This document shows, piece after piece, positions 4,985-41,212 of a DNA stretch of 45,990 nt (the stretch's first letter is position 1; every line of letters begins with the position of its first letter). Made by a program: the position numbers and the translations under genes. The notes under the pieces are model-generated. The model was given only the letters and a program-made list of their open reading frames with translations. It was not told the DNA's origin and searched no databases. Source of the stretch: a bacterium (GTDB taxonomy: Bacteria > Arandabacterota > Arandabacteria > Arandabacterales > JALGWA01). The stretch lies in assembly GCA_050125095.1 (NCBI GenBank), contig JASFEA010000006.1, positions 1 to 45,990 of the forward strand, written 5' to 3'.

Positions 4985-5180
4985 AACAGAAGAAAGACGC
5001 CTGGCCGAGTTCCCCTGTGAGTGGGCCTGCGGAGTATGCGCCGCGGTGTGCGCGGCACAGGCGATAGACTACGTCCCCGGGGCGGTGATTGTGCAGAGCG
5101 GTCGATGCACCGGCTGCGGCGACTGTGTCAGGGTCTGTCCCCACGGTATTCTCAAGGAGGAGCACCTTGCGCGACTATGA
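4965..5180 (+). CDS. Small 2x[4Fe-4S] ferredoxin-like protein
   Basis: CEWACGVCAAVC and CTGCGDCVRVCP motifs; overlaps the alaS end and the reductase start; TTG start. Confidence 0.8.
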   Translation: MPILLDKTEERRLAEFPCEWACGVCAAVCAAQAIDYVPGAVIVQSGRCTGCGDCVRVCPHGILKEEHLARL

Positions 5181-6345
5181 CGTCATTGTCGCCGGCGGAG
5201 GCTGCGCCGGCCTCTGGGCGGCGATCGTCGCCGCGCGCCGAGGAGCAAGGACGCTCCTGCTCGAGAAGGAGGGCGATATCGGCGAGAAGATAAGGTGCGC
5301 CGAGGGCGTGGGGACCAGAGGTATATCGCAGTTTGTCGACATCGATGCCGGCTGGATCGCGAGCGAGGTTCATGGCGGCAGGTTTTTCTCGCCGGACGGC
5401 AACTGCGTGAGCGCCGATGAGCCCGGCTGCGGCTTCATTCTTCATAAGGACCTGTTCCTCAAGGGGCTGGCGGACATGGCGAGAGAAGCCGGGGCGGAGA
5501 TCAGGACCTCAAGCAGGGTGGCGGGGCTGAAGCCGCTTGACGGCGGAGGATTCGAAGTGTGCCTTGGGGACGGCCGGGGGACCTCGGGGGACAAGCTGGC
5601 CTGCGGGGCCGTGGTCGCCGCCGATGGCATTCAGTCGGGCGTCGCGCGCCTTGGGGGCCTCGATACGCATATCCCTACCGATGAGGTCTTCATCTGCGCG
5701 CAGAACACGGTGTCTTCGGTGGACGTCGACCGGCATATGGTCGAGTTTCATTTCGGCAGCCGGATCGCCCCCGGCGGCTACGCCTGGGTGTTTCCCAAGG
5801 GTGATTCCATGGCCAATGTGGGGGTAGGCATAAGGTCCGGAGCCGCGCACGGCCGCGCATATGATTATCTCGGGGAGTTCATGAAAAGCCGCTGCCCGGG
5901 CGCGCACATCGAGAGGTCGATAGTGGGCGGCGTGCCGGCTGTAAGGAAGGCGCCGAGGGGTCTTTACAGAGGCCTTTTTCTGGCCGGCGACGCGGCGCGC
6001 GCCGCCGACCCGGTTTCGGGAGCCGGAATAGTGCCCGCGTTGGAGTCCGCCGCCGTGAGCGGCGAATACGCGGCAGTCCTGGCGCTGGGCGAGATGCCCT
6101 ACAGAGATGTGGAGCGCGAGTTCAAGAAGAAATACGAAGGCGTGCTCAAGTGGAGAAAGCTCCGCTATGCTCTCAAGAAGGTGTTGACCGCCCTTACCGA
6201 CGCGGAGTACTCAAGACTGGTCGGCCTGATAGACGAATACTGCTCCTCAGGAGCCAGCCTTCAGGAGTCCGGCAAGCTCGTTAAGTTCTTCATCAAATCC
6301 ATGCCGCGCAACTTCGGCATGGTCAGGCACCTTGCGGGGATCTAA
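5167..6345 (+). CDS. Geranylgeranyl reductase family FAD oxidoreductase (digeranylgeranylglycerophospholipid reductase-like)
   Basis: YDVIVAGGGCAG FAD motif, IRCAEG, PGGYAWVFPKG, GDAA..DPVSGAGI; TTG 5167 after AAGGAGG RBS. Confidence 0.85.
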   Translation: MRDYDVIVAGGGCAGLWAAIVAARRGARTLLLEKEGDIGEKIRCAEGVGTRGISQFVDIDAGWIASEVHGGRFFSPDGNCVSADEPGCGFILHKDLFLKGLADMAREAGAEIRTSSRVAGLKPLDGGGFEVCLGDGRGTSGDKLACGAVVAADGIQSGVARLGGLDTHIPTDEVFICAQNTVSSVDVDRHMVEFHFGSRIAPGGYAWVFPKGDSMANVGVGIRSGAAHGRAYDYLGEFMKSRCPGAHIERSIVGGVPAVRKAPRGLYRGLFLAGDAARAADPVSGAGIVPALESAAVSGEYAAVLALGEMPYRDVEREFKKKYEGVLKWRKLRYALKKVLTALTDAEYSRLVGLIDEYCSSGASLQESGKLVKFFIKSMPRNFGMVRHLAGI

Positions 6346-6346
6346 A

Positions 6347-7105
6347 ATGGCCGGCGTATACGAGCACATGCTGAGTTTCAAGACTTCGGACAGGGCGGGG
6401 TACGTCGTGCTGATCGATCCTGACCGCATCCCGATGGACGACATCGAGGAAAGGGTCGCGCTCATCAGCCGGTATGCCGACCTCGTCTTCATAGGAGGCA
6501 GCATAGTAACACGCGGGAGCTTCGATGAAGCCATAAGGCGCGTCAAGAGAGCTTCCGAAGTTCCGGTGGTGATTTTCCCGGGCGACGCCACGCAGGTATC
6601 CGGCGGGGCCGACGCCATCATGTTCCTGTCGCTCGTAAGCGGGCGGAACGCCGACCTTCTCATCGGCGAGCACGTCAAGGCCGCCCCATTGGTGCGGAAC
6701 CTGGGGCTAGAGGCCATTCCAGTGGCGTACATTCTTGTTGAATCGGGCCGGACCACATCAGTACAATTCATGAGCCAGACGCTGGCGATACCCGGGGACA
6801 AGCCTGAGATAGCTATGGCTCATGCCCTGGCCGGGGAGTACCTGGGCATGAAGGCGGTATTCCTCGAGGCCGGGAGCGGCGCGGAGAATCACGTGCCCGC
6901 GGGCATGGTGAAGGCAGTCTCGGATTACGTGTCAGTCCCGGTCATGGTCGGCGGAGGCATCAGGACGCCTGACATGGCGGGGGAACTCGTGAAGTCAGGT
7001 GCGACTTTCATAGTCACCGGCGACATAATAGAAAAACACGCAAGCGAAAGCATGCTGGAGGACTTCAGCAGGGCCGTACGCGAGACCTGCCGCGAAAGGG
7101 GTTGA
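6347..7105 (+). CDS. Geranylgeranylglyceryl phosphate synthase (GGGPS/PcrB family, group II-like)
   Basis: LIDPD, IGGS, FPG, DA..FLSLVSGRN, YILVESG, FLEAGSGA, VGGGIR, IVTG motifs. Confidence 0.9.
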   Translation: MAGVYEHMLSFKTSDRAGYVVLIDPDRIPMDDIEERVALISRYADLVFIGGSIVTRGSFDEAIRRVKRASEVPVVIFPGDATQVSGGADAIMFLSLVSGRNADLLIGEHVKAAPLVRNLGLEAIPVAYILVESGRTTSVQFMSQTLAIPGDKPEIAMAHALAGEYLGMKAVFLEAGSGAENHVPAGMVKAVSDYVSVPVMVGGGIRTPDMAGELVKSGATFIVTGDIIEKHASESMLEDFSRAVRETCRERG

Positions 7106-8175
7106 TCGATACGAAAGCCGTTATCTTGAGTGGAGGAAAGGGAACAAGGCTCAGACCGATAACCCATACGGGTGCCAAGCAGCTGGTCCCGGTGGCCAAC
7201 AAACCCATTCTCTTTTACGGAATCGAAGCGATCAGAGACGCGGGCATAACCGACATAGGAATAGTCGTCGGCGACACGGCTGCGGAGATCGAGGCGGCGG
7301 TGGGAGACGGGTCGGAGTTCGGAGTCAAGGCGACGTATATCAGGCAGGAGGCCCCGCTCGGCCTTGCGCATGCGGTGAAGATAGCCAGGGACTTCGTCGG
7401 CACTGACAGGTTCATTGTCTATCTGGGGGACAACCTCATTATCGAGGGCATCAAGCAGTTCGTAGAGCAGTTCGAATCGCTGTCGCCGAACTCCCAGATA
7501 CTGCTCGCCCACGTGCCGAATCCGCAGGACTTCGGCGTCGCCGAGCTTCGGGGAGAAAGGGTGGCGCGCCTTGTGGAGAAGCCCAAAGAGCCCAAGACGG
7601 ATCTCGCGCTCGTAGGCGTCTACATGTTCGATGAGAGCATATTCGAGGCGGCGGACAGGATAAAGCCCTCCTGGAGGGACGAGCTCGAGATAACAGACGC
7701 CATACAGTACCTGATAGAGCATGATTTCGACGTCAGGTTCCGCATCATAGATGGGTGGTGGAAAGATACGGGCAAGCTGGAGGACATGCTGGAGGCCAAC
7801 CGGATGATTCTCGAGCGGATCGAACCGTCGGTCGACGGCGATATAGACTCGAAGTCCAAGACCGACGGCAAGGTGGTGGTCGGCAAGGGCGCCAGAATAG
7901 AGAACTCCATTCTCCGGGGGCCGCTCATAATCGGTGAAAACACGCGGATCGTCAATTCGTATATAGGGCCGTTCACATCCATCTATTATGACTGCGAGAT
8001 AACGGGCAGCGAAATAGAGCACAGCATAATCTTAGAGCGCAGTAAGATAGTGGATGTGGGGGCGCGAATCGAAAGCAGCCTTGTCGGCAAGAACGTAGTG
8101 ATAGAGAAGCATGCTCAGCGCCCGAAGGCATGCAGCTTCATGGTGGGCGACTACAGCCACATCGTGCTGGACTGA
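7102..8175 (+). CDS. rfbA: Glucose-1-phosphate thymidylyltransferase, long form
   Basis: ILSGGKGTRLRPITHTGAKQLVPVANKP, LVEKP, ELEITDA, WWKDTG; C-terminal hexapeptide repeats. Confidence 0.92.
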   Translation: MIDTKAVILSGGKGTRLRPITHTGAKQLVPVANKPILFYGIEAIRDAGITDIGIVVGDTAAEIEAAVGDGSEFGVKATYIRQEAPLGLAHAVKIARDFVGTDRFIVYLGDNLIIEGIKQFVEQFESLSPNSQILLAHVPNPQDFGVAELRGERVARLVEKPKEPKTDLALVGVYMFDESIFEAADRIKPSWRDELEITDAIQYLIEHDFDVRFRIIDGWWKDTGKLEDMLEANRMILERIEPSVDGDIDSKSKTDGKVVVGKGARIENSILRGPLIIGENTRIVNSYIGPFTSIYYDCEITGSEIEHSIILERSKIVDVGARIESSLVGKNVVIEKHAQRPKACSFMVGDYSHIVLD

Positions 8176-8195
8176 AGAACGGGGGGAGGTCGCTC

Positions 8196-9044
8196 TTGAA
8201 AATACTGGTCACCGGCGCCCGGGGCATGATGGGAACCGACATGTGTGACGTCCTCGCTCAAGGTCATGACGTGGCCGGCGTGGACATAGAGGATTTCGAT
8301 ATTCTTAACGGCGAGGCGGTGCTCGAGGCCATTGAAGCGCTGGCCCCCGAGATTGTGGTGCATCTCGCGGGCTTTACCAGGGTTGAGGACGCCGAGGACC
8401 AGAAGGACGAGGCCTTCAACACCAACGCGGTGGGCACGATGAATATGGCCAAGGCGTCGAGGGACGCGGGCGCCCGCCTTATATACGTGAGCACCGACTA
8501 TGTCTTCGACGGATCGAAAGATTCTCCCTATGTCGAGACCGACATTCCGGCCCCTATAAATTTCTACGGACTCACAAAGCTCTTCGGGGAGAGATACGCC
8601 TCCTCTCTGAACCCGCGCCATCTCATCGTCAGGACATCCTGGCTATACGGGCCAAACGGCAAGAACTTCGTTGATACGATACTCGCGAGGGCGAGAGAGG
8701 GCGCACCCTTGAGGGTGGTGGACGACCAGCGGGGCAGCCCGACATACACGTGTCACCTGGCGCGGGGAATCAGGGCGGCCCTGGAGAAGGGAGTCGAGGG
8801 GACGCTTCACATGGCCAACTCGGGAGAGACCACCTGGTATGAATTCGCCAGGACCGCCCTCGAACTGGCGGGCCTGGAGGCCGAGATCAAGCCCGTGTCC
8901 AGCAGCGAGTATGTTACCAAAGCGGCCCGCCCCAAGAACTCGGTGCTCGGGAGTCTGGTCATCGGACACGCCGGCCTCGAGCCGCTTCCCGACTGGAAGC
9001 ACGGTCTACGTGAGCACCTCGCGAGGCGAGAGGCGGCCCAATAA
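8196..9044 (+). CDS. rfbD: dTDP-4-dehydrorhamnose reductase
   Basis: ILVTGARGMMG, STDYVFDG, YGLTK, RTSWLYG, DDQRGSPT, ARPKNS; TTG 8196 after GGAGG. Confidence 0.92.
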   Translation: MKILVTGARGMMGTDMCDVLAQGHDVAGVDIEDFDILNGEAVLEAIEALAPEIVVHLAGFTRVEDAEDQKDEAFNTNAVGTMNMAKASRDAGARLIYVSTDYVFDGSKDSPYVETDIPAPINFYGLTKLFGERYASSLNPRHLIVRTSWLYGPNGKNFVDTILARAREGAPLRVVDDQRGSPTYTCHLARGIRAALEKGVEGTLHMANSGETTWYEFARTALELAGLEAEIKPVSSSEYVTKAARPKNSVLGSLVIGHAGLEPLPDWKHGLREHLARREAAQ

Positions 9045-9072: not shown

Positions 9073-9648
9073 ATGCCATGCGAATGGGTTAAGCAGACTC
9101 TGAAATCGGGAAGTGACCTTTATCTCCGGACTTCGGATACATGTTGCGACGACATCGCGGCCGCGGCGAGGGCTGTCCTCGAGACGCTCAAGGGCGGCGG
9201 CAAGGTACTTCTCTGCGGGAACGGGGGTAGCGCGGCCGACGCGCAGCACATCGCCACCGAGATGACGGTCAAGATGGGGAAGGTGCGCGAGCCCATGGCG
9301 GCCGTAGCGCTAACCACCAATCCGTCGCTGCTGACGGCCCAGGCCAACGACCTGGGTTTCGACACGGTGTTCTCCAGGCAGGTGGCGTCCCTCGGAAGCG
9401 CGAAGGACATACTCATCGCCATAAGTACGAGCGGCAACTCGCCCAACGTACTCGAGGCGGTGAACGCAGCGCGCGACATGAAGATGAAGACAATAGGCCT
9501 GACAGGGTGCGGGGGCGGTAAACTCGCTCCTCTCTGCGATATTCCCATTATCGTGCCGTCGGATGAGGTTCAGCGCATTCAGGAGGCGCATATCGCCATA
9601 GGCCACATGATATGCGAACACGCCGAGACGGGGCTGTACGGGGAGTAG
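9073..9648 (+). CDS. gmhA: D-sedoheptulose-7-phosphate isomerase
   Basis: CGNGGSAADAQH, ANDLGF..VFSRQ, ISTSGNSPN, RIQEAH. Confidence 0.93.
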   Translation: MPCEWVKQTLKSGSDLYLRTSDTCCDDIAAAARAVLETLKGGGKVLLCGNGGSAADAQHIATEMTVKMGKVREPMAAVALTTNPSLLTAQANDLGFDTVFSRQVASLGSAKDILIAISTSGNSPNVLEAVNAARDMKMKTIGLTGCGGGKLAPLCDIPIIVPSDEVQRIQEAHIAIGHMICEHAETGLYGE

Positions 9649-9708: not shown

Positions 9709-10350
9709 ATGGCACATCTTAAGAGCGTTTTCCTGGGGCTCCTGGGACTCAAGAAAGACAGGCGGCCTCAGCCGGTATCCAAGCAAGTCGTGGTGGAGAA
9801 CCTGCTCGATGCGCGATCAATCCTCGACTCGCTGGGAATAAGTTTCTGGCTCACCGACGGCACGCTCCTCGGTTATTTCCGCGAGGGGGACTTCATCGAA
9901 CATGACAGGGACGTCGATCTCGGCCTCATGATAGAATCCTACTCCGAAGACATCGTGCCGGCATTCCGGGAGAGAGGATTCGAGGTGAAGTACGTGTTGG
10001 GCGAGAAGAAGCGGGGGCTCGAGCTGTCTTTTGTCAGGAACCGGGTGAATGTCGACCTCTTCTTTTTCTACCGCGAGGGCGACCGCATCTGGCACGCGGG
10101 CTGGGAGGGGATTGACAAGGGAAGAAAGCGCAATCTGATCAAGTACTACTATGAGCCCTTCGACCTGAGGGAAATCGAATTCTACGGTGCGCGTTTCAAT
10201 GTCCCTGCGGACACTCTGAAGTATGTGGAGACGAAATACGGCGAGAGCTGGCGGACGCCCATCAGGGATTGGGACTGGGCCATGGGGCCGGCGAACGCCT
10301 TCCGGACCGACGTCATCCTGAAGAGGAACAGGAAGAAGATAGTCAGGTAG
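9709..10350 (+). CDS. LicD/fukutin-family phospho-ligand transferase
   Basis: FWLTDGTLLGYFREGDFIEHDRDVDLG, VDLFFFY, YVETKYGESWRTP. Confidence 0.85.
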   Translation: MAHLKSVFLGLLGLKKDRRPQPVSKQVVVENLLDARSILDSLGISFWLTDGTLLGYFREGDFIEHDRDVDLGLMIESYSEDIVPAFRERGFEVKYVLGEKKRGLELSFVRNRVNVDLFFFYREGDRIWHAGWEGIDKGRKRNLIKYYYEPFDLREIEFYGARFNVPADTLKYVETKYGESWRTPIRDWDWAMGPANAFRTDVILKRNRKKIVR

Positions 10351-10368
10351 ACGAACGGCACTGCGACA

Positions 10369-11220
10369 ATGAAGATCTCGGTGATCCTGAGCACATATGA
10401 ACGCCCCGACCTGCTTCGATTGGCGCTTCTATGCCTGAACCACCAGAGCCGCCTTCCGGATGAAGTCCTGATAATCGACGACGGCTCGGAAACCGACGTG
10501 GCATCGTCGGTGAGGGAGTATGCAGCGAATCTGGAATTCGGTTCAATCAAGTACATCCGCCAGGAAAACCGGGGATTCAGGCTGGCGAGGAGCAGGAATA
10601 ACGGCATACGCGAGGCTGAGGGGGACTATATCGTCTTCTGGGATCAGGATGTTCTCGCTACCAGGGGTTATCTGAATCTGTATTCGGAGTTCGGGCGCCC
10701 TGGGGAATTCCTGGTGGCTTTCCCCGTGCTTCTGAGTGAGGAGCAATCGGCGCTTGTAACACTTGATGAGGTCGTCCGATGTGATTACCTGAGCCTTCTG
10801 TCGACGGCCCAGCTCAAAGTGGTGCGCCGGCAATACTACAAAGACAGCTTCTATTACCATATGGGCAAGTTATTGCCATGCAGGCGATACAGACCCAAGG
10901 TGCGTGGCGGGTATTTCGGTCTTGCGCGCGACGACCTCCTCAGGGTTGACGGGTTCGACGAGAACTACAGGGGCTGGGGAGCGGAGGACGACGACCTGGG
11001 GCGCAGGCTCTATCGCGCCGGGGTAGTGGGCAGGACGGTGTTCCGCCACGAGTTTCCTTTACATCTCTGGCACCCTCATGAGACCGCTGCTCAGGACAGC
11101 CCGAACCTCCCATACTACACCCGCAGGCTCGGAGAAATCGCCCGTGGCGACTACAGGGCCGTGAACGGCATCTCGAATCCTCTGGATAACGACGCGCCCA
11201 CCGTGGAGCGGATCAAGTAA
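10369..11220 (+). CDS. Glycosyltransferase family 2 with galactosyltransferase-like C-terminal domain
   Basis: ISVILSTYERP, IIDDGS, ARSRNNG, FWDQD, GFDENYRGWGAEDDDL, HLWH. Confidence 0.9.
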   Translation: MKISVILSTYERPDLLRLALLCLNHQSRLPDEVLIIDDGSETDVASSVREYAANLEFGSIKYIRQENRGFRLARSRNNGIREAEGDYIVFWDQDVLATRGYLNLYSEFGRPGEFLVAFPVLLSEEQSALVTLDEVVRCDYLSLLSTAQLKVVRRQYYKDSFYYHMGKLLPCRRYRPKVRGGYFGLARDDLLRVDGFDENYRGWGAEDDDLGRRLYRAGVVGRTVFRHEFPLHLWHPHETAAQDSPNLPYYTRRLGEIARGDYRAVNGISNPLDNDAPTVERIK

Positions 11221-11236
11221 GAGATTGAGAATCCCG

Positions 11237-12370
11237 TCATGCTATTCGGTTAAGCATGTCCGTGAGGGACTCCCGGGTTAGCAGTCTGGGATTGTTCTTC
11301 ACCCGGTCCGGATTGAACCCGTTCTCGACGATCACCGATATGTCCTCCTTATTGATTCCGAGGTCGCGAAGGCGAGTCTCGAGATGGATTCGCCCCATCA
11401 GGCCGGTCAATGTCTCCGCGGCTTCCCCGGGGTCGGAGACCCCTATCAGCGAGACCAGTTTATCAAGGGTTTTCTTGACGTATGCCAGACCTCTCTTGTC
11501 CAATACGTCATCCTCGGTTGCGCGTGAATTATAAACGAGCATGGACGGCAGCGTAAGGCCCACCGCGTGTCCGTGCGCAACCCCGAAATATGAAGTTATG
11601 GGATATGATACGGCGTGGCTTGCCGATGTCTTGGAGATGTTAATGGCCTTGCCTGCGAGATGAGCTGCCCGCGCCATGGCTTCCCTTGCCATTTCAGATG
11701 GGGCGTTCACCGCTTCCTCAAGGTTGTCCATGGCGAGTCGAATACCCTCCGCGGCGTAGTATGTCGATTCCTCGGTGGAGTTTACACTCCAGTATGACTC
11801 AATGGCCTGGCACAGCGCATCCATGCCCGTCACCGAAGTTACGGCGGGAGGGAGGCTCATTGTAAGCACCGGGTCTACTATGGCGGATGCCGGGAGCATT
11901 GACTCATGCTCCAGTGAGTACTTGGTCTTCTCCATGTAAACCACGGCGAAACACGTGGCTTCGCTTCCGGAACCCGCTGTCGTCGGTATCGCGATTAGGG
12001 GCTTGCCGGCCTTTCGCATCTCCTCGCGCTTAAGCACGTATGACCGAGGCTCTCCCTGTTGGGCTGCGAGTACGTTGACGGACTTGGCCATGTCGATTAC
12101 GCTTCCCCCGCCTACCGCGAGGACAAGATCGCAACCCGAGTCCATGAGACGGACAACGCCTCTTTCGATGTCCCCAATCTCCGGGTTCGTTGAGAAGTCG
12201 GAGAACGCGGTGTGTTCAATCCGTCCAAGGAGTGGCTCCAGCAAGCCTCTGGCGCCTGAGGTATCATAGGAATCCCCGCCCCTAACCAGGAAGATGCGGG
12301 AAGGTGAATGAACCCGCAGAACGTCGGGCAGAGCCTCAATCGCGCCTTTACCGACGTATTCGGTCTGCAC
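11237..12370 (-). CDS. Iron-containing alcohol dehydrogenase, putative phosphonoacetaldehyde reductase (makes 2-HEP)
   Basis: AVGGGSVIDMAK, AIPTTAGSGSE, DALCQAIESYWS, HAVSYPIT...HGHA, RVKNNP; directly downstream of ppd. Likely GTG start 12370 (alternative 12391). Confidence 0.85.
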   Translation of the reverse strand: MQTEYVGKGAIEALPDVLRVHSPSRIFLVRGGDSYDTSGARGLLEPLLGRIEHTAFSDFSTNPEIGDIERGVVRLMDSGCDLVLAVGGGSVIDMAKSVNVLAAQQGEPRSYVLKREEMRKAGKPLIAIPTTAGSGSEATCFAVVYMEKTKYSLEHESMLPASAIVDPVLTMSLPPAVTSVTGMDALCQAIESYWSVNSTEESTYYAAEGIRLAMDNLEEAVNAPSEMAREAMARAAHLAGKAINISKTSASHAVSYPITSYFGVAHGHAVGLTLPSMLVYNSRATEDDVLDKRGLAYVKKTLDKLVSLIGVSDPGEAAETLTGLMGRIHLETRLRDLGINKEDISVIVENGFNPDRVKNNPRLLTRESLTDMLNRIA

Positions 12371-13502
12371 CGTCGCCCCCCTGGAGGTCACTCATGAAAG
12401 CCTCTTTGTTCTCGATCGGGGTGGTTGTCGGCCTGCCGAGGTCTTTCCGGGCGCCTTTCTTGACCCTGACAATCAGCATGCGCGGCCCGTCGGCTGAGAG
12501 CATCTCTCTACAGGCCCGATCCAAATCCTCTCGATTTTCCACGGTTGCCGCGCCCCTGTAGTTGTTCGCAAGGGCGAGGCGCTCGAAGCTGACAGTCGGC
12601 GAGGTTGTCGGCTGTCCGCCCGTTGAGTCGTAAGAATGATTATCGAATACCACATGATAGAGGTTCGGCGGCAGGTAATGCCCGATGGTCGACAGGGCCC
12701 CTTCCTGCATTATGACCGCTCCGTCGCCGTCCAGCACGACGGCTCTTCTGTTCTCTTTCCCGAGCGCCAGTCCAAGCGCTATCGACGCCGAGCAGCCCAT
12801 GGAGCCCACCGTGAGAAAATCCGATTGATGGCCCTGGCCCCTCGACTCGCGGTATTCGAATACCTCTCTCGACGTCTTCCCGGTGGTCGATACTATGAGT
12901 TCATCGCCGCGCAGGTTGTCGAGGAGCACCGTGATAGCCTCCTCTCTCGTCATCGTGCACTTGCGCTTATCGATTGTGGTCGAATCGTAATGCTCAAACG
13001 TGTCCCTCTTTACTATGAGCGCGTATGGTGTCTTTCGCTCGAGGGCGCATGACACGGCTTCCTTAATCAGCCCGGCCGCTTCTCCCGAGTCTCGGGGTAG
13101 GTGGGCATACGGGACTTCCAGCACTTCGAGCAGGGGAAGCGTTATCCTGCCCATCTTCCTGTGCTGGGGCTCGTCCTTCTTCCCGGGCTCGCCTCTCCAA
13201 CCGATCATCAGCACCATGGGGATTGAGTAGACTTCGGGGTCGGCGAGCGATGTCAGAGGATTCACGGCCTTTCCAAGGCCGGCGTTCTGCATGTAGACCA
13301 CGGCGAGGCTGCCGGTGGCGAGATAACGGCCCGCGGCTATTGCCACGGCCTCGCATTCATTGCAGGCGATGATGTTGTGTAGACCCCTGCCGTGGTTGTC
13401 GGCCAGAAACCTCATCCAGTCATTGAAAGTGCTGTCGGGCACGCCCGTGAAGAAGGTCAGGCCCTTCTTTTTCAGTATACCCCAGAGGTCTTCGCATTTC
13501 AT
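12348..13502 (-). CDS. aepY: Phosphonopyruvate decarboxylase (ThDP-dependent)
   Basis: [52 protein letters not shown] ThDP motif, [12 protein letters not shown] overlap with the pepM stop. Confidence 0.93.
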
Positions 13503-14800
13503 TCGCCCGCTCCAGGTATGAGTGTGAGTATGTCGGCAATGGGCAGACACTCCTGGCCGGCCTCCAGACATCGGTGGTGCTTGAGTATGCTCTCGGCAGT
13601 TCTCACCATGGCCGGGTAGGCGCTTCTAAGGAGGTGATTGGCGTAGATGACTATGTTCACGCCGGCCTCCATGAGCTCCTCCTCGGTTATTGCGCAATAG
13701 GTCGAAGGAACCGCCACAAGGGGGACTCGGAGAGCCAGCTTGCGGTATTCTGCCGCGAACTCGAGAATCTCCCCTGGATCCTTCTCTCTGCTGTGTATCA
13801 TGATTCCGTCAGCGCCGGCATCAATGTATGAGCGCGCCCGCATGAGCGCGTCATCCAGGCCCTTCTTGAGTATAAAACTCTCGATTCTGGCGATGATCAT
13901 GAAGTCCTCGGTGACCTGTGCTCTCTTGCCGCTCAGGACTTTCTCACTGAACGCATCTACATCGTCTTGTGTCTGCCTGACATCGGTCCCGAAAAGGGAG
14001 TTCCGCTTGGGGCCGGTCTTGTCCTCGATGATAACGGCCGAGACTCCGTGACGCTCGAGCGACTTGACCAGGAAAACGAAATTCTCCGTAAGCCCGCCAT
14101 TGTCTGCGTCAACCACTATGGGCTTGGTGGAGATGTCGACGATCTGCTCTATCGTCGCAAGCCGGGACGTGAAGTCCACCGCCCCGGTATCCGGTTTGCC
14201 TTTCGCAGCCGAGTCCGTGAGGCTGCTCACCCACATGCCGTCGAACTCCCTCGCCGTATCGCCCTCGACAATCCTGGTCTTTTCCACTATGCGGGCTGTC
14301 AGACCGTTGTGCACTTCGAGTATCCGCACTATGGGCTTCAGTTCCAGCAGCCTGCGGAGCTTCTTGCGCCTCAGGTCGGGCGTGGTTCCTATTTGCAAAG
14401 CGTCTCTGATGAGCTGCGTTGACGACACCCCTTCGGTATACTCGGGCTCGACGAGCTTGCCGCCCCATCTCTTGAGGGCCTCTATTACGCGGGCGCGCGT
14501 CTGCTGCTGGACACCCGTCTTCCAGTCGCTGCCATGGACAACGTAGTCGGGCTTGACCTTGAGGAGATTGGGCACATAGTCCAGCGTATCCTGGGGTATC
14601 ACGCTTGAGACGCCTTTCATACCCTCGATTATGGCCTTCCTGTGCTCGTAGGACAGCAGGGGGACCCGCTTGTAGCTCGCTATGGCCTCATCGGTCAGCA
14701 GACCTACGGTTACGTCCCCCAGCTTGCTTGCCTCTCTGATTATGTTGATGTGGCCGTGATGTACGAGATCTGCGCACATGCCGACGTATACTCTGGCCAC
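13499..14800 (-). CDS. pepM: Phosphoenolpyruvate mutase with N-terminal cytidylyltransferase domain
   Basis: PepM signature [31 protein letters not shown]-terminal DLVHHGH (HxGH) domain; AAAGGAGG RBS, GTG start. Confidence 0.95.
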
Positions 14801-15344
14801 TCTCGTTCCCTCCTTTCGTATATATCCTGCGGATCTTGCCTACTATGTTTTCCGTCGACAGCTTCTCATAGAAGGGGGGTTGTACTATCTCGCCGCCTAT
14901 TTTCTTTACATAGGCCTCTCCCGGTACCCTCTTCCAGTTGGAACCGTAGACCAGTATCACCTTGACGTTGCCGAACTGCTTTCTGATGCGCCTGAGGTTA
15001 GCCGTCGGGTCAAGCTCCTTCTGCGTGATTACCATGTCGACACATCTCAGGGCCGACACTATTGCCATCCTCTCCCTGAATCCACAGACGGGCTCCTCCT
15101 TATAGGATTTGATTGCGTCATCCGTCAGAACGCCGCAGATATGAAAGTCACCCAGCTCGTTGGCGCTCTCAAGCAGCCTGAGGTACCCGTAATGGAAAAG
15201 ATCCGCGGTGACCGCAGTATATACGACCGTTTTGGTCTTCTCCTTCTCAATGCTGACTATGTCGCCTTCTCTGATACCTGAGTTCTTGGGAATTGTCACG
15301 CACAACTGGCCGTTTGACTTGTTGGCCCATACCACCTTTTTCAT
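14688..15344 (-). CDS. Cytidylyltransferase-like protein with N-terminal AbrB/MazE-like segment
   Basis: Residues ~1-35 [23 protein letters not shown]; then [38 protein letters not shown]; low-complexity tail overlaps pepM by 113 nt. Confidence 0.8.
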
Positions 15345-15358
15345 CGTATTCCCCCCCG

Positions 15359-15391
15359 TTGATATTTACTAGTATTACTAGTAAATGTCAA
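15359..15391 (-). promoter_or_regulatory. Phosphonate operon promoter overlapped by a 33-bp palindrome (putative operator)
   Basis: Minus strand reads TTGACATTTACTAGTA-A-TACTAGTAAATATCAA: 16-1-16 inverted repeat with one mismatch, beginning with a perfect TTGACA; ends 14 nt upstream of the ATG. Confidence 0.7.
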
Positions 15392-15475: not shown

Positions 15476-15511
15476 TGTGCATTCCGAGACCTGACCCCAT
15501 GACCTGACCCC
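15476..15511. repeat. GACCTGACCCC repeat, two tandem copies; part of a dispersed 24-nt repeat
   Basis: Copies at 15488-15498 and 15501-15511; 15476-15499 matches 35205-35228 at 22/24 nt. Confidence 0.7.
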
Positions 15512-15545
15512 AAGCGGCTTTTTGTTTTGTGTGGCGGGAATTTCC

Positions 15546-15554
15546 TGTTATACT
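15546..15554 (+). promoter_or_regulatory. Extended -10 promoter candidate for the SMR-udk-ubiA-ispE unit
   Basis: TGtTATACT upstream of a GGAGG RBS and ATG 15591. Confidence 0.5.
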
Positions 15555-15590
15555 ACCCCGAAATCGAAACGGCCAGAGGAGGCTTATCGT

Positions 15591-15992
15591 ATGCTGAAGA
15601 ACTTCGCGCTGCTTCTTTTCAGCGTAGTGCTCGGGGTGCTGGGGCAGCTCTCGCTCAAACGCGGGGTAATGATGGTCTCCTCGGGTGCGTCATCGGGCAT
15701 CACGCGTTCCCTGGGCATCAAGTCCATCACGAGCTTTCTGGGAAGCGCCGTCGGCAATTACTACGTGCTGCTCGGCTTCCTGCTCTACTTCATAAGCGCC
15801 ATGTCGTGGTTAATCATTCTCTCCAGGGTCAACCTGAGCATAGCGTATCCCATGATCAGCGTCGGATACATAGTCATCGTGCTGGTATCCAAGTACTTCC
15901 TCCATGAGGAGGTCACGGCGCTCGCCATACTGGGGACGCTGCTCATATGTTTCGGCGTTTTCCTTATCCTGAGGTCAATGCCCAGTGGCTAG
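15591..15992 (+). CDS. SMR/EamA-like small membrane transporter (ArnE/F flippase-like)
   Basis: Four hydrophobic helices, [28 protein letters not shown]. Confidence 0.8.
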
Positions 15993-15993
15993 G

Positions 15994-16644
15994 ATGGAAC
16001 CTGTCATAATCGGCCTGGCCGGGGGAACGGGATCGGGCAAGACGACGGTCGCGGTCAACGTCAAGTCGCGCTTCAGCGCGAAGAACGTGCTTATACTGCC
16101 GCACGACTCCTATTACCGTGACCGCTCGGACCTGCCATTCGAAGAGCGCGAGAAGCTCAATTACGACCACCCGTCGGCTTTCGAGAACGAGCTCCTCATC
16201 GATCATCTCAGGAAGCTCCGGAACTGGGAGACCATCAGGCGGCCCAAGTACGATTACAAGACCCACTCCCGATGCGAGGAGACGCTGAGGGTGGAGCCCG
16301 CTGAGATAGTGCTCCTCGAGGGCATTCTGGTTCTTGAGGACGAGGAGCTCCGGTCGCTCATGGACATCAAGATATACATAGACGCGGATTCCGACGAGAG
16401 GTTCATCAGGCGGCTCCTCCGGGACATGAAGGAGCGCAAGCGCTCCGCGGACTCGGTCATAGAGCAGTACGTCGCCACGGTCAGGCCCATGCACCTTCAG
16501 TTCGTGGAACCGAGCAAGCGCTACGCCGATATAATAGTCCCGGAGGGCGGGCACAACGCGGTGGCCATAGATCTCCTGGTAAGCAAGATACGGGACGTCC
16601 TCAGGAACTCGGACGGCGGCCATGAGGGAGTCGTGAATGGGTAA
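15994..16644 (+). CDS. udk: Uridine kinase
   Basis: [43 protein letters not shown]. Confidence 0.95.
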
Positions 16645-17530
16645 AGCCGGCTATTACATAAGATCCATGAGGCCGCTCCAGTGGAGCAAGAACCTGGTCG
16701 TGCTTGCAGCCCTCATGTTTTCCCGCAATCTCTTCAACCCGGAGATGGCGTTGAGGAGCCTTGAGGCCTTCGGCGTCTTCTGCCTGCTCTCGGCGTCGAT
16801 TTATATCTTCAACGATGTCCGTGACTACGAGAGGGACCGCGTGCACCCGGTGAAATCCGGTCGGCCCATTGCCAGCGGCAGCATCCCGCGGTCGGGCGCG
16901 CTCATCTTCGGCGTCCTCCTGGGGCTGGGCGGGCTGGTGCTTGCGAGCCTGCTGGGAACGGGCTTCTTCAGGGCGGGCCTGGTCTATTACTTCCTCATGA
17001 TTGTCTACTCGCTGGGTCTTAAGAATGCCGTCGTTCTGGACGTGCTTATAATATCGATAGGCTTCGTGCTGCGGGCGATTGCGGGCGTGGAGGTTCTCAA
17101 GGCCATCCAGCCCGGCGTGCTGATTTCGCCGTGGCTGCTCGTATGCACGCTTTTCCTCGCGCTTTTCTTAGGCTTCAACAAGCGCCGGCACGAGGTCACG
17201 CTGCTTTCGGAGGAGGCCGCCAGGCACAGGAAGAGCCTCGACGATTACACGGTCGAGTTTCTGGACGCCGTGATCGCGGTCGTGACGGCCGCGACGGTCA
17301 TCGCCTACTCCATATACACCATCTGGCCGGCAACGGTCGCCAAGTTCAATACGGCCGGCCTGATCTACACGGTGCCGTTCGTAGTCTACGGTCTCTTCAG
17401 ATATATGCACCTCGTAATAGTGAAGCACAGGGGAGGAAGCCCCTCCGAGATACTGGCCTCGGACGTACCGCTGGTCGTGGACATCATTCTCTGGCTCGTC
17501 GTCGCGGGCCTGGTCCTTTACACTTCTTGA
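16637..17530 (+). CDS. UbiA-family prenyltransferase, decaprenyl-phosphate phosphoribosyltransferase-like
   Basis: [50 protein letters not shown]; multiple TM helices. Confidence 0.85.
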
Positions 17531-17538
17531 CTCCGGCC

Positions 17539-18414
17539 ATGAGCGATCAAGACTGCCTCAAGCTTCGCTGTAACGCCAAGGTGAACCTGTACCTCGACGT
17601 TCTGGGGCGGCGGCCGGATGGTTACCACGACATAGAGACGGTGTTCCACACCATCTCGATATCCGACTCCCTGACAGTGACCCGGCGCGAGAGCGGTTTC
17701 ACGCTTTCCGCCGGGAGCGCCGATGTCCCGCGGGACGAGTCCAATCTGGCCCTGCTGGCGGCGAAGCGGTTGCTGGGAGAGGGCCGCGGGGGAGTGCATA
17801 TCGACCTTGAGAAGCGCATACCGGTAAGCGCGGGTCTCGGGGGCGGCAGCGCAGACGCCGCGGCGAGCATGGTGGCGGTCAACCGCATATTCGGGCTCGG
17901 GCTTACCGATGAGGACCTTCTCGAAGCCGCCTCGGAGATTGGCTCCGACGTACCCTTCCTTCTCAAGGGAGGATGCGCCCTGGGGAGGGGGCGGGGGGAG
18001 AACCTGACTGAAATGAACTGCCTGCCGCCGCTTTGTGTGGTTGTGGTGGCGCCCCCTCTGGAAGTGAGCACGAGGTGGGCTTACGAGTCTCTTAGAACGG
18101 GGTTGACAAGCCGGGGCGGTCGGAGTAGAATCAACACGAATGCTCTAGATAGGGCTGTGAAGTCGCTTAATTTATTATTGTACAACAGGTTCGAAGAGCT
18201 TGTTTTTGAAAGGTATCCCCTGGTCGGTAGGATCAAGGAGGGTCTTTTGGAGGCGGGAGCCGCAGGGGCCCTCATGACGGGTTCCGGGCCCGCCGTCTTC
18301 GGGATCTTTGAAAAGGAAGGTGATGCGGCGGAGATTATCGCGCGTTTTAAGGACGAGGGCTTGAGCGTGTACTGCTCGAGTTTCGAAGAATCTGGCGTGA
18401 GCACCTGTTCGTGA
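17539..18414 (+). CDS. ispE: 4-diphosphocytidyl-2-C-methyl-D-erythritol kinase
   Basis: AKVNLYL..GRRPDGYH, KRIPVSAGLGGGSADAA, IGSDVPF, MTGSGPAVF; start ATG 17539. Confidence 0.95.
   Translation: MSDQDCLKLRCNAKVNLYLDVLGRRPDGYHDIETVFHTISISDSLTVTRRESGFTLSAGSADVPRDESNLALLAAKRLLGEGRGGVHIDLEKRIPVSAGLGGGSADAAASMVAVNRIFGLGLTDEDLLEAASEIGSDVPFLLKGGCALGRGRGENLTEMNCLPPLCVVVVAPPLEVSTRWAYESLRTGLTSRGGRSRINTNALDRAVKSLNLLLYNRFEELVFERYPLVGRIKEGLLEAGAAGALMTGSGPAVFGIFEKEGDAAEIIARFKDEGLSVYCSSFEESGVSTCS
18103..18131 (+). promoter_or_regulatory. Near-consensus sigma70 promoter inside ispE
   Basis: TTGACA(18103-18108)-17 nt-TAGAAT(18126-18131). Confidence 0.7.
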
Positions 18415-18482
18415 GGCGGGACTTAACCCGATGCTAATGTGTCTTTGGAGTTGATTTTCGGGGAGAGGAGGCCTGAGGCAGC

Positions 18483-19067
18483 ATGGTCATCACCAATGTC
18501 AGGGTCTCGCCCGTGGAGAGACAGCGTGTACTTGGCTTTGCGAGCGTAACGCTCTGTGATTGCTTCGTGTTGCGCGCCATGCGCATTGTCGAAGGCAATA
18601 AGCGCAGGTACGTGGCCATGCCCCGTAGGTATTCGAAAGAGGGGCAGGTCTTTGAGGTGTTTCATCCAATCGGCAAGGAGGCAAGGGATACTCTCGAGCG
18701 CGTGGTATTCGACGAGTATACCCGGCAGATTCGCGGCGAGGCAGGCGTTCCCGAGAAGGCCGTGATCGGATCCAACTGTCCGGACTTCCGGATCACATCG
18801 GTGAAGGTGCGCCCTTTTGAGGAAGTGAAACTGCGGGGATTCGCGTCTCTGGTTATTGACGACTGCATCGCGATAACCGGCATCAAGATAATAGAAGGGC
18901 GGAAACGCGCTTTTCTTCAGATGCCCAACGCCCGAAAGAAGTCAGGCAAGTTTTTTGACCTTGCATTTCCGATAAGTTCAGATATAAGAGATATGATCGA
19001 GAAGGCCGTTCTTTCGGAATTCAGCGATCAGGCCGAGGGCGTAGGTCTGGAGCGAAGTGCCGGCTAG
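18483..19067 (+). CDS. spoVG: SpoVG-family protein with two tandem SpoVG domains
   Basis: Two copies of IT.V.V..GFAS..DDC/CDC..I.EG..MP..G.F..PI; between ispE and tRNA-Gln/prs. Confidence 0.85.
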   Translation: MVITNVRVSPVERQRVLGFASVTLCDCFVLRAMRIVEGNKRRYVAMPRRYSKEGQVFEVFHPIGKEARDTLERVVFDEYTRQIRGEAGVPEKAVIGSNCPDFRITSVKVRPFEEVKLRGFASLVIDDCIAITGIKIIEGRKRAFLQMPNARKKSGKFFDLAFPISSDIRDMIEKAVLSEFSDQAEGVGLERSAG

Positions 19068-19070
19068 CGG

Positions 19071-19145
19071 TGGGGCGTCGTCAAGTGGTTAAGACACAGG
19101 GTTTTGGTCCCTGCATCGGGGGTTCGAATCCTCCCGCCCCAGCCA
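19071..19145 (+). tRNA. tRNA-Gln (anticodon TTG)
   Basis: Acceptor TGGGGCG/CGCCCCA, anticodon arm CAGGG-TTTTGGT-CCCTG, GGTTCGAATCC T-arm, encoded CCA. Confidence 0.95.
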
Positions 19146-19226
19146 GTTTATGCCAGCCGACCAGCCTGGTACCGATTCCCGCAGGACAACGGAGGATGCG
19201 ACAAACGGAGAAAGGACTCAACCCAG

Positions 19227-20150
19227 ATGAAGATCTTTGCCGGACGGGCTAACAGAGCTCTAGCGGAAGAAATGGCTCAGTTCCTGGAAACAGAACTCGG
19301 CGACTGCGAGATAACGCAGTTCTCGGACGGGGAAATCTTCGTAAAGATCAACGAGAACGTAAGGGGCGTGGACGTGTTCATCGTCCAGCCCACTTTCCCG
19401 CCCGCGGAGAACCTCCTGGAGCTTCTCATAATGATCGACGCGGCGAGCAGGGCGTCGGCTTCGCGCATCACCGCGGTGCTGCCCTATTACGGCTATGCCA
19501 GGCAGGACAGGAAAGACCAGCCGCGGGTCGCCATCAGCGCCAAACTCGTGGCGAACCTGATCACCGTGGCGGGCGCCAACAGGGTCCTGACCGTGGATCT
19601 CCATGCGGGCCAGATACAGGGATTTTTCGACATTCCGCTTGATCATCTGTTTGCGTCACCGGTTATTATTGATTACTTTAAAGGACTCGAAATCAAGGAC
19701 CTGACTGTGGTATCCCCGGACATGGGCAGCGTGCAGATGGCGAGGGCCGTAGCGAAGAGGCTGGAGGCCCCCCTGGCGCTGGTCGACAAGAGGCGACCCA
19801 AGCCAAATGTCTCGGAGGTCATGAACGTGATTGGTGAGGTCGAAGGCAGGAACCTTATAATCCTGGACGACCTTGTTGATACAGGCGGCACGATTGTCGA
19901 GGCCGCCGCCGCGCTCAGAGCAAAGGGCGCAAAGGAAATATACGTAGGTTGCACTCACGGCATTCTCTCGGGGAATGCGCTTGAGAGGATACAGAAATCC
20001 CCGATAACGGAGCTTGTCATCACGAATACCGTCCCTCTGGCGGACGGCAAAAAGGCTGACAAGGTCAGGATTCTGTCGGTGGCGCCGCTCCTGGGCGAAG
20101 CCATCAGGAGAATCCACAACGGCGAGTCCGTGAGTTCTCTATTCAATTAG
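19227..20150 (+). CDS. prs: Ribose-phosphate pyrophosphokinase
   Basis: FSDGE, PYYGYARQDRK, DLHAGQIQGFF, VVSPD, DDLVDTGGT. Confidence 0.97.
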   Translation: MKIFAGRANRALAEEMAQFLETELGDCEITQFSDGEIFVKINENVRGVDVFIVQPTFPPAENLLELLIMIDAASRASASRITAVLPYYGYARQDRKDQPRVAISAKLVANLITVAGANRVLTVDLHAGQIQGFFDIPLDHLFASPVIIDYFKGLEIKDLTVVSPDMGSVQMARAVAKRLEAPLALVDKRRPKPNVSEVMNVIGEVEGRNLIILDDLVDTGGTIVEAAAALRAKGAKEIYVGCTHGILSGNALERIQKSPITELVITNTVPLADGKKADKVRILSVAPLLGEAIRRIHNGESVSSLFN

Positions 20151-29202: not shown

Positions 29203-30630
29203 ATGTTGGTGGAAGATAGGCAGGAATTACTGCGTAGCTTGCCATCTGTCGAAGTCGTGGTCGAGAAGCTCGAGAGGAGTCCCGATGCCTCCAGCCATCC
29301 GAGACAGGTCATGGTGAACGCCGCGCGTGAAGTCGTTTCCGAACTCAGGCGGGGCATTCTCGACGGCTCAGTAAGAGAGGCGCCCGGAGAGAAAGGCGTT
29401 CTCGAGAGAGTCCGCATCAGGCTGGAAGAGTCTAGTCTCAAGGGAATACGCAGGATCATCAACGCGACGGGCGTGATCGTTCACACCAATCTGGGCCGGT
29501 CGCTGCTCGCGGAAGAGGCGCGGGTTGCGGTCGATGAGGTCATATCCTCATACGCCAGCCTCGAGATGGACCTGTTGACCGGCAAGCGCACTTCGCGAAC
29601 GGCATATGTCTGCCGCCTGCTGGCTGATCTCATCGGGTGCGGGGGCGCGCTCGTGGTGAACAACAATGCCGCGGCCGTCATGCTTGTCCTCAACACGCTT
29701 TGCAGCGGAAGAGACGTCATCGTATCGAGAGGTGAGCTCGTGGAGATCGGCGGGTCCTTCCGTCTTCCCGAAATCATAGAGAGAAGCGGCGCGACACTCG
29801 TCGAGGTGGGCACCACCAACAGGACAAGGATCGAGGACTATGAGCGCGCTGTCACCGGGCGCACGGGCGCGATCCTCAAGGTGCACCAGTCGAACTTCAT
29901 GATGTCGGGTTTCGTCGAGTCGGTTCCATGCGCCGACCTTGCGAAACTCGCCGGCGGTAAAGGACTGCTGCTCATCGACGACCTGGGGAGCGGCGCGCTT
30001 TACGACTTCTCCGACCTGGGGATAGGGAGAGAACCTCTTCCGCAGGACTCCTTGAGGAGCGGCGCGCAGCTTGTGACTTTCAGCGGCGACAAACTCATGG
30101 GCGGCCCGCAGGCCGGTATAGTGGCGGGAGAGGGCGACCTGGTTGAGAAGTGCAGGCAAAACCCGATGGCGCGCGCCTTAAGGGTGGACAAAGTGACTCT
30201 CGCCGCGCTGCAGGCCACACTGATGCTGTATCTGGATCCGGAGCGCCTCATCGAGCGCCTGCCGACCCTCAAAATGATAGCGATGCCCGCGGAGGAGATA
30301 AAGAAGCGGGCTGAAAGGGTCGCGGCAGCTATTTCGCGCGAAGCGGGGGATACAGCGGCGATAAGCGTCGCCGAGGACGAGTCGCGCATCGGAGGGGGAG
30401 CGCTCCCCGGAAGCGCGATCCCGACATACGTTGTGGTGATATCCCCGCGGCAGATCTCCGCGGACGACTTCGTTTTCAGGCTGAGAAAATGCCAAGTGCA
30501 CGTCATCGGAAGGATCTCCGAAGACAGGGCACTCCTGGACCTAAGAACGGTAGATCCGTCGGAAGACGATTTGATAATAGAGTCTATTAACGGCATATTC
30601 GCTCGTATCAGAGACGACGAGAGGAGCTGA
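29203..30630 (+). CDS. selA: L-seryl-tRNA(Sec) selenium transferase
   Basis: INATGVIVHTNLGRS, VNNNAAAV, SRGELVEIGGSFR, EVGTTNRT, FSGDKLMGGPQAG (PLP lysine). Confidence 0.96.
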   Translation: MLVEDRQELLRSLPSVEVVVEKLERSPDASSHPRQVMVNAAREVVSELRRGILDGSVREAPGEKGVLERVRIRLEESSLKGIRRIINATGVIVHTNLGRSLLAEEARVAVDEVISSYASLEMDLLTGKRTSRTAYVCRLLADLIGCGGALVVNNNAAAVMLVLNTLCSGRDVIVSRGELVEIGGSFRLPEIIERSGATLVEVGTTNRTRIEDYERAVTGRTGAILKVHQSNFMMSGFVESVPCADLAKLAGGKGLLLIDDLGSGALYDFSDLGIGREPLPQDSLRSGAQLVTFSGDKLMGGPQAGIVAGEGDLVEKCRQNPMARALRVDKVTLAALQATLMLYLDPERLIERLPTLKMIAMPAEEIKKRAERVAAAISREAGDTAAISVAEDESRIGGGALPGSAIPTYVVVISPRQISADDFVFRLRKCQVHVIGRISEDRALLDLRTVDPSEDDLIIESINGIFARIRDDERS

Positions 30631-40048: not shown

Positions 40049-40050
40049 GA

Positions 40051-41160: not shown

Positions 41161-41212
41161 CCGGCGAAGGGCTTCGACGCCGGGCGCCATTTGACGGAGG
41201 CTCATACTGGAC

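Follow-up and report, generated by a model that had tools for sequence, protein, structure and literature searches.

Our favoured reading, held with moderate confidence, is that a compact locus in the genome of an Arandabacterota bacterium makes 2-hydroxyethylphosphonate (HEP), activates it with CMP, and uses a LicD-like phosphotransferase to attach it to a surface glycan built with a family 2 glycosyltransferase (GT2). The locus occupies positions 9709-15344 of the 45,990-nt stretch that we analysed (contig JASFEA010000006.1, assembly GCA_050125095.1; hereafter the window), and its ends are exactly the start codons of the outermost open reading frames (ORFs). The genes for LicD and GT2 lie on the plus strand. 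Converging on them from the minus strand is a cassette for PEP mutase (PepM; PEP, phosphoenolpyruvate) fused to a cytidylyltransferase (CT) domain, phosphonopyruvate decarboxylase (Ppd), an iron-type alcohol dehydrogenase (ADH) and a second, stand-alone CT that we call NT2. The stop codons of the cassette and of GT2 are 16 nt apart. A first-pass annotation of this DNA had described PepM, Ppd and Fe-ADH on the minus strand converging on LicD and GT2, and its gene positions and strands agree with the ORF ends and with the Pfam and NCBIfam matches.

Predicted synthesis and CMP activation of 2-hydroxyethylphosphonate

PepM and Ppd were judged by the curated cut-offs of NCBIfam equivalog models, and domains by Pfam. 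The CT-PEP mutase fusion (13499-14800, minus strand; PF01467, PF13714, TIGR02320) has the architecture of Fom1, with CTP_transf_like at residues 8-131 (CT part, about 14411-14794) and PEP_mutase at residues 147-405 (mutase part, about 13514-14362). It scores 388 bits against TIGR02320 (cut-off 319.55) and carries the catalytic motif EDKxxxxxNS at fusion residues 259-268 (13997-14026), the motif that serves as the PepM criterion in Rice et al. (2019, PMC6697681). Ppd (ORF 12348-13571, minus strand, with a likely ATG start at 13502) reaches 454.8 bits against TIGR03297 (cut-off 312.5) in an alignment that begins at residue 36, and has both thiamine pyrophosphate domains, PF02775 and PF02776. Going by homology and motifs, the two proteins are PepM and Ppd, and strong homology underlies the steps we assign to them: PepM would convert PEP to phosphonopyruvate, and Ppd would convert phosphonopyruvate to phosphonoacetaldehyde.

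The third step would be the reduction of phosphonoacetaldehyde to HEP by the Fe/Zn ADH (11237-12391, minus strand; a GTG start at 12370 is possible), a putative PhpC-type reductase. Its matches to PF00465 (133.6 bits) and PF25137 (118.5 bits) make it a member of the group III ADHs, and it is syntenic with pepM and ppd, being the last gene of the operon and overlapping ppd. PhpC-type sequences diverge from one another, and published surveys rely on synteny to recognise them (PMC13576164, PMC9381506). Among the 120 best listed homologues (about 53-99% identical), eight are named phosphonoacetaldehyde reductase by NCBI (52-59% identical), and the protein is 44% and 38% identical to the reductases so named by RefSeq in Fulvitalea and Segatella copri, respectively. 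Two of the NCBI-named homologues (P0217 and P0228) are CT-ADH fusions whose CT is 56% identical to the PepM-fused CT of the window, linking the enzyme expected to make HEP with the enzyme expected to activate it. As the first-pass annotation had stated, the locus has no aminotransferase: a Pfam scan of every one of the 82 window ORFs of 150 aa or more, plus some shorter ones, found a single pyridoxal phosphate enzyme, the selenocysteine synthase SelA, at 29203-30630, far from the cluster. The proposed route from PEP through phosphonopyruvate and phosphonoacetaldehyde to HEP is thus well supported by the PepM and Ppd scores, by the naming within the ADH family and by the lack of an aminotransferase in the window, with homology plus context pointing to phosphonoacetaldehyde as the likely ADH substrate.

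Residues 3-130 of the fused CT match PDB entry 5x3d_A with an E-value of 1.3e-54 and 188.8 bits (85/128 identical, about 66%, counted on the alignment). This 160-aa entry, labelled 'Phosphoenolpyruvate phosphomutase' by its depositors, is presumably the HEP cytidylyltransferase domain of Fom1. The fused domain lies N-terminal to PepM and its HxGH motif is intact (HHGH). According to Rice et al., the N-terminal CyTase domain of Fom1 makes CMP-HEP, and PF01467 fusions account for 23.6% of PepM proteins (PMC6697681). Neither CT of the window is a TagD, since TIGR01518 gives 47.7 for the fused CT and 37.8 for NT2 (cut-off 165.4). Beside LicD the window has no further nucleotidyltransferase, nor does it hold a LicC-like PF12804 enzyme, the only PF12804 matches being inside RmlA-long (7102-8175). 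From homology and motifs, then, this is a CT domain, and its predicted reaction is HEP + CTP to CMP-HEP. Such CMP activation by the PepM-fused CT, also part of the first-pass annotation, is well supported by homology (5x3d_A) together with context (the CT-ADH fusions).

The cassette is translationally coupled. The Ppd start ATG (13502-13500) overlaps the PepM stop (13501-13499) as ATGA, the ADH start overlaps the end of Ppd, and the remaining junctions overlap too. The fusion gene has its own ribosome-binding site, AAAGGAGGG, 7 nt before its GTG start at 14800 and inside the tail of NT2. The fusion with its EDKxxxxxNS motif, as first annotated, is therefore real, but 14688-15344 is a separate ORF in another frame, a second CT gene that had been missed. 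We rejected the reading of 14688-15344 and 13499-14800 as one frameshifted gene, given the strong ribosome-binding site before GTG 14800, the free-standing NT2 homologues of about 180 aa and the whole CT domain held by each ORF. Promoter and terminator scans gave counts not above those of shuffled sequence.

The LicD-like protein and its expected reaction

The LicD-like protein (9709-10350, plus strand) has 213 aa and no predicted transmembrane segment. PF04991 matches it with 39.0 bits (cut-off 22.6), covering residues 43-79 only (37 of 213), and the NCBIfam Mf1 model gives 49.5 against a cut-off of 225. We scanned species-representative genomes and obtained 34 loci, of which 28 (L001-L027 and L034) were counted as its clade; L028-L033 match only the LicD N-terminus (E 2e-8 to 1e-7) and were left out of the counts. 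The motif DGTLLG..R..HDxDxD is invariant in 27 and in 34 homologues, including D66, D68 and D70. Of the LicD homologues, 17 are at least 70% identical. The family profile matches the catalytic domain of FKRP (6kaj, E 4.5e-10), and for the AlphaFold2 (AF2) model, with a mean confidence (pLDDT) of 93, the best Foldseek match is the FKRP-CDP-ribitol complex (6kam_A; E 1.5e-7, TM 0.59). Taken together, the invariant motif, the profile match and the FKRP-like model indicate a predicted LicD/FKRP-type transferase for CDP-activated donors; the fold is that of LicD as judged from homology, motifs and the model. FKRP and fukutin transfer ribitol phosphate from CDP-ribitol, and FKRP, the closest solved fold, has the same DxD-type nucleotidyltransferase-fold catalytic domain, yet it is eukaryotic, has an extra stem domain, uses a phosphate-ester donor and is only 24% identical. 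The partner gene (10369-11220, plus strand) encodes a GT2 with a Glyco_transf_7C domain (PF00535 and PF02709). A homologue of this GT2 (35-68% identity) is present in 10 of the 28 clade loci, the copy in L014 being truncated where the contig stops.

HEP cassettes also adjoin phosphotransferase genes in other organisms. In L015, a Bacteroidales metagenome-assembled genome (MAG), CT-PepM, Ppd, ADH and LicD form one tight same-strand run. The RefSeq-annotated plasmid pFA2 of Fulvitalea axinellae (from PLSDB) has the same gene set, with aepX, aepY and phosphonoacetaldehyde reductase likewise converging on a 'LicD family protein', although this LicD is of the canonical, full-length PF04991 type and, over 53 residues, only 34% identical to that of the window. 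In a RefSeq-annotated plasmid record of S. copri DSM 18205 (L036, 8278-13752), a TagF-type CDP-glycerol glycerophosphotransferase comes after aepX, aepY and the reductase. There aepX is a PF12804-PF01467-PepM triple fusion, and the cassette belongs to an O-antigen-like cluster in which an O-antigen polymerase and a flippase are also downstream, so that in this human gut bacterium the phosphonate donor may serve TagF-type enzymes as well. Unlike the window, neither the Fulvitalea nor the S. copri locus has NT2. The overlapping junctions of our cassette, and the recurrence of the same gene set beside a phosphotransferase in three other organisms, suggest that the arrangement is more than chance. 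That these cassettes lie beside three unrelated or distantly related CDP-alcohol phosphotransferases is the best argument for CMP-HEP as a donor of such enzymes.

We infer from this context that LicD would act on CMP-HEP. A sugar hydroxyl would attack the phosphonate phosphorus, releasing CMP and leaving a HEP phosphonoester on the glycan; the transfer would take place on the cytoplasmic side, the acceptor being a lipid-linked oligosaccharide made with the help of GT2. The glycan is probably lipopolysaccharide (LPS)-core-like or another lipid-linked surface oligosaccharide, because GmhA adjoins LicD and the clusters of relatives hold heptosyltransferases and MsbA-like transporters. The gene for GmhA, a sedoheptulose-7-phosphate isomerase, lies directly upstream of LicD (9073-9648, plus strand), with 186.2 bits against TIGR00441 (cut-off 209.45) and 196.2 against NF010546 (cut-off 276), and several clade loci hold family 9 (GT9) heptosyltransferases and MsbA-like transporters. 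The cassette acts like a plug-in head-group module, its place being taken by a LicC-like nucleotidyltransferase in L001, the closest relative, and by a glycerol-3-phosphate CT in other members of the clade. Of the pathway as first proposed, synthesis and CMP activation are well supported; LicD as a HEP transferase acting on a GT2-built glycan has gene adjacency as its evidence.

Several known systems resemble parts of this locus. In fosfomycin biosynthesis in Streptomyces wedmorensis, Fom1 (acting with FomC) has the same N-terminal PF01467 CT fused to PepM, a PhpC-type reductase makes HEP, and CMP-HEP is the activated species (PMC6697681). There, however, CMP serves for a time as the handle for C-methylation and is then taken off again, whereas our cluster lacks Fom3, Fom4 and FomD and its LicD/GT2 pair points to CMP-HEP as the donor in glycan decoration. 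The Pnt clusters of Rice et al. likewise combine nucleotidyl activation of a phosphonate with LicD-like and glycosyltransferase genes for surface glycans, and the same authors describe LicD-like phosphotransferases in clusters for 2-aminoethylphosphonate (AEP). The PntCs characterised in that paper are, though, AEP-specific PF12804 enzymes from clusters encoding an AEP transaminase (PMC6697681); the window has a Fom1-type PF01467 CT, which is not a PntC, and an ADH in place of the transaminase. Also similar are the pepM/aepY/phpC neighbourhoods of Lockwood et al. (2022, PMC9381506), where a glycosyltransferase, a 'lipopolysaccharide choline phosphotransferase' and an adenylyltransferase are reported, the same gene set as here. 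HEP-type neighbourhoods make up 8.5% in Li and Horsman (PMC8942020), who also cite a HEP-polysaccharide conjugate isolated from Stackebrandtia nassauensis, whose exopolysaccharide comes from a PhpC-encoding cluster; this species is an actinomycete, unlike our bacterium, and what it has in common with our locus is a PhpC-type gene and the polysaccharide-bound HEP, which for our locus is predicted. As reported in PMC9381506 and PMC6697681, and as annotated in two RefSeq genomes, the arrangement is already described, and this locus is a new example rather than a new kind of system. The literature searched yielded no biochemical demonstration of phosphonate attachment to glycans.

HEP esters on polysaccharides represent a large share of marine high-molecular-weight organic phosphorus (PMC9381506, PMC8942020), which gives the transferase step a bearing on the phosphorus and methane cycles. 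In the TagD-LicD and LicC-LicD modules of the clade, orthologous LicD proteins (40-72% identical), often with the same GT2 partner, sit in surface-glycan clusters where the donor is supplied by a glycerol-3-phosphate CT or by a PF12804 nucleotidyltransferase, as opposed to the HEP cassette of the window. Our 213-aa LicD, its near-orthologue in L001 with a different activation gene and the TagD-paired members form a natural series on the acceptance of C-P donors and on donor choice.

Weighing the alternative readings

Several observations weigh against LicD as the enzyme that transfers HEP. The LicD-GT2 pair and the cassette are on opposite strands, without co-transcription, and flippase, polymerase and exporter genes are absent from the immediate cluster. 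Co-occurrence of the LicD clade with pepM, a check put forward in the first-pass annotation, turned out against a phosphonate-dedicated clade: pepM was present within the fetched flanks of 1 of 28 loci (L015), and of none of the 15 with at least 4 kb on both sides, 13 loci being short on at least one side. A small PF01467 CT was found in 17 of the 28 (within 1 kb in 13), and six of the seven tested reach the glycerol-3-phosphate CT (TagD) cut-off. Eight loci have a PF12804 nucleotidyltransferase, alone in three and fused to an aminotransferase in five, and in two no activation gene was found. One of the two loci without a nucleotidyltransferase has two TagF-like genes, and L005 pairs its LicD with TagF-like enzymes. 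The LicD clade is thus not dedicated to phosphonates and would serve more generally as a head-group transferase in surface-glycan clusters.

The closest syntenic relative, L001 (LicD 72% identical), points in the same direction. It shares with the window the order geranylgeranyl reductase, geranylgeranylglyceryl phosphate synthase, RmlA, RmlD, GmhA, LicD, GT2, EamA-like, Udk and UbiA-like, yet it lacks all four cassette genes. A LicC-like PF12804 nucleotidyltransferase lies between its GmhA and LicD, and an extra Caps_synth-like gene between its LicD and GT2; the spacer between its GT2 and EamA-like genes aligns with window sequence just right of the cassette. Adjacency in the window could hence be the outcome of an insertion into a variable spot. 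As for signs of a mobile element, the borders of the cassette showed just a 13-nt tandem duplication, at one end, and flanking repeats were absent; this duplication (GACCTGACCCCA plus one base; 15488-15512) is beside the right border and is single-copy at the matching place in L001. The GC content of the cassette resembles that of its flanks. A maximum-likelihood tree joins the window LicD and L001 as sisters (99/98 support) and puts L015 on a separate branch, so linkage to pepM arose at least twice within the clade. A search for convergent LicD substitutions common to the two pepM-linked members gave only two weak columns and no signal. As for the cassette enzymes, the best NCBIfam model of the ADH, TIGR03405 (PhpC-type), gives 203.7 bits, below its cut-off of 423.7 (the L015 ADH is likewise below, at 178.9), and its best solved relative is methanol dehydrogenase. 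NT2, finally, is without the second His of HxGH, which matters for catalysis in the family: HYGY is found in the window and in the four closest listed relatives (P0083-P0085 and P0087), HYGH in 102 of the best 120 homologues.

Alternatively, the adjacency could be incidental. LicD-GT2 would then transfer an ordinary phospho-alcohol, for instance glycerol phosphate from CDP-glycerol made elsewhere, or the NT2 product; the cassette would have been inserted at a variable locus, and CMP-HEP would go to a lipid, a protein or a small molecule by way of an unlinked transferase. The convergent gene sets, the TagD-grade CTs of the clade, the TagF-like partners in L005 and the syntenic, cassette-free L001 with its own PF12804 enzyme all agree with this. 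We nevertheless regard it as unlikely: near LicD the window holds neither a TagD-grade nor a LicC-like nucleotidyltransferase, and HEP cassettes adjoin a phosphotransferase in the three other organisms described above. Moreover, a LicD homologue (P0003, 79% identical) and an ADH homologue (P0205, 71%) have longest contigs of identical size (37422), which suggests that a relative with a 79%-identical LicD also carries the ADH.

Two other readings change the product. HEP might be only an intermediate: before the transfer step, an unlinked MpnS, HEPD, hydroxylase or methyltransferase would turn free HEP or CMP-HEP into methylphosphonate, hydroxymethylphosphonate or some other phosphonate. Several pathways use HEP as a precursor, pepM, ppd, phpC and nucleotidyltransferase genes are found in the Nitrosopumilus cluster for methylphosphonate as well (PMC8942020, PMC9381506), and NT2 is a second CT with no assigned role. 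Yet the Pfam scans of the window found no cupin/MpnS/HEPD-like, radical-SAM or methyltransferase gene, and the Fulvitalea and L015 loci are equally minimal, so we give little credence to a further conversion. Still less probable, in our view, is AEP as the product, made through an unlinked transaminase while the ADH has another or a salvage role. AEP is the product expected from 56% of pepM neighbourhoods, clusters that encode AEPT can likewise contain PF01467-PepM fusions (PMC8942020), and the subthreshold TIGR03405 score of the ADH would fit such a role. Against this, the pepM-ppd operon ends with the ADH gene, which overlaps ppd, the ADH family includes the CT-ADH fusions P0217 and P0228, and no aminotransferase is found within 46 kb. 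The identity of about 66% between the fused CT and 5x3d_A, the presumed Fom1 domain, also speaks for HEP.

Some members of the LicD scan deserve mention in their own right. In L020, L021 and L024-L026 (Nostoc and Iningainema MAGs), a longer LicD-clade gene (about 311-328 aa) is followed by a fusion of PF12804 with a class I/II aminotransferase, which suggests yet another activated head group for the clade. In L022 (10001-14480), a gene for a phage minor tail protein lies at a distance of about 1.4 kb from the LicD homologue, which may sit in a prophage. L033, one of the loci left out of the counts, has a Ppd fragment 9 kb away.

The second cytidylyltransferase and the surrounding genes

NT2 (14688-15344, minus strand; PF01467, E 1.1e-9) is a paralogue of the fused CT, with 33% identity to it, and the closest solved relative of its family is again 5x3d. 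We found 408 homologues; the best 120 of these are 67-89% identical, mostly about 180 aa long, and many come from Woesearchaeota and Nanoarchaeota. Identity between our bacterium and DPANN archaea is about 70%. The first 38 residues form an N-terminal extension that is almost invariant in the family. Since homologues end near residue 183 and the window ORF has 218 aa, its last 35 or so residues are a lineage-specific tail overlapping the next gene. Homologues P0086 and P0089 carry a second CT domain in tandem. Five NT2 and five ADH homologues have longest contigs identical in size (8892, 13970, 21441, 25330 and 36571), suggesting that the two genes travel together, and two nucleotidyltransferases per phosphonate cluster are a recurring pattern in PMC8942020.

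Two identities for NT2 or its parts were considered and rejected. HldC, the heptose-1-phosphate adenylyltransferase that would go with GmhA, does not fit: TIGR02199 gives 78.5 against 181.5, the closest solved relative is 5x3d, and NT2 is tied to the cassette through the ADH. An AbrB/MazE-like N-terminus was likewise discarded (Pfam E 0.14, nothing significant in a PDB sequence search, AF2 pLDDT of 42-66 over residues 1-40).

Just upstream of NT2, at 15364-15386, reading of the sequence revealed a perfect 23-nt palindrome with 11-nt arms and a 1-nt centre, AT-rich, with genomic GC at about 60%. The window contains a single copy (100 shuffles gave an expectation of 0), which sits in a promoter-like TTGACA-17 nt-TAAATA stretch, a site that the consensus promoter scan did not call. 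It looks like an operator and we treat it as a candidate. A more speculative proposal, which we consider doubtful, takes in both NT2 and the LicD clade: a donor-flexible short LicD clade would receive the HEP cassette as a mobile plug-in that swaps a glycerophosphate or LicC-type head group for a phosphatase-resistant phosphonate at the same slot (window versus L001), and NT2, instead of being a second activating enzyme, would partner or sense the Fom1-type domain without catalysis of its own, or regulate its own gene at the palindrome.

Upstream of GmhA lie RmlA-long (7102-8175; TIGR01208 above cut-off, 485.6) and RmlD (8130-9044; TIGR01214 above cut-off), and the RmlA/RmlD/GmhA/LicD arrangement is syntenic in L001. 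Preceding them, at 5089-7105 (4794-6768 in L001), are a geranylgeranyl reductase-family gene and a geranylgeranylglyceryl phosphate synthase (TIGR01769, 188 bits against 161.55), in a clearly bacterial context that includes RecA, SpoVG, SMC and FtsY; archaeal-type ether-lipid genes of this kind have been reported for FCB-group bacteria (PMC7852524). On the other side, 15522-20150 holds an ArnE/F-like small EamA protein, a uridine kinase, a UbiA-family decaprenyl-phosphate phosphoribosyltransferase-like gene (NF008977, 261 bits against 234), IspE, SpoVG and phosphoribosyl pyrophosphate synthetase. The first three of these genes are syntenic in L001, and the group hints at a polyprenyl-phosphate pentose donor pathway. 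The SelA gene mentioned above indicates that the organism probably uses selenocysteine. A second envelope-glycan group at 39754-45988 comprises a family 4 glycosyltransferase, an LPG_synthase_TM protein, an O-mannosyltransferase that is TMEM260-like and contains TPR repeats, and, continuing beyond the window, a type I phosphodiesterase/nucleotide pyrophosphatase.

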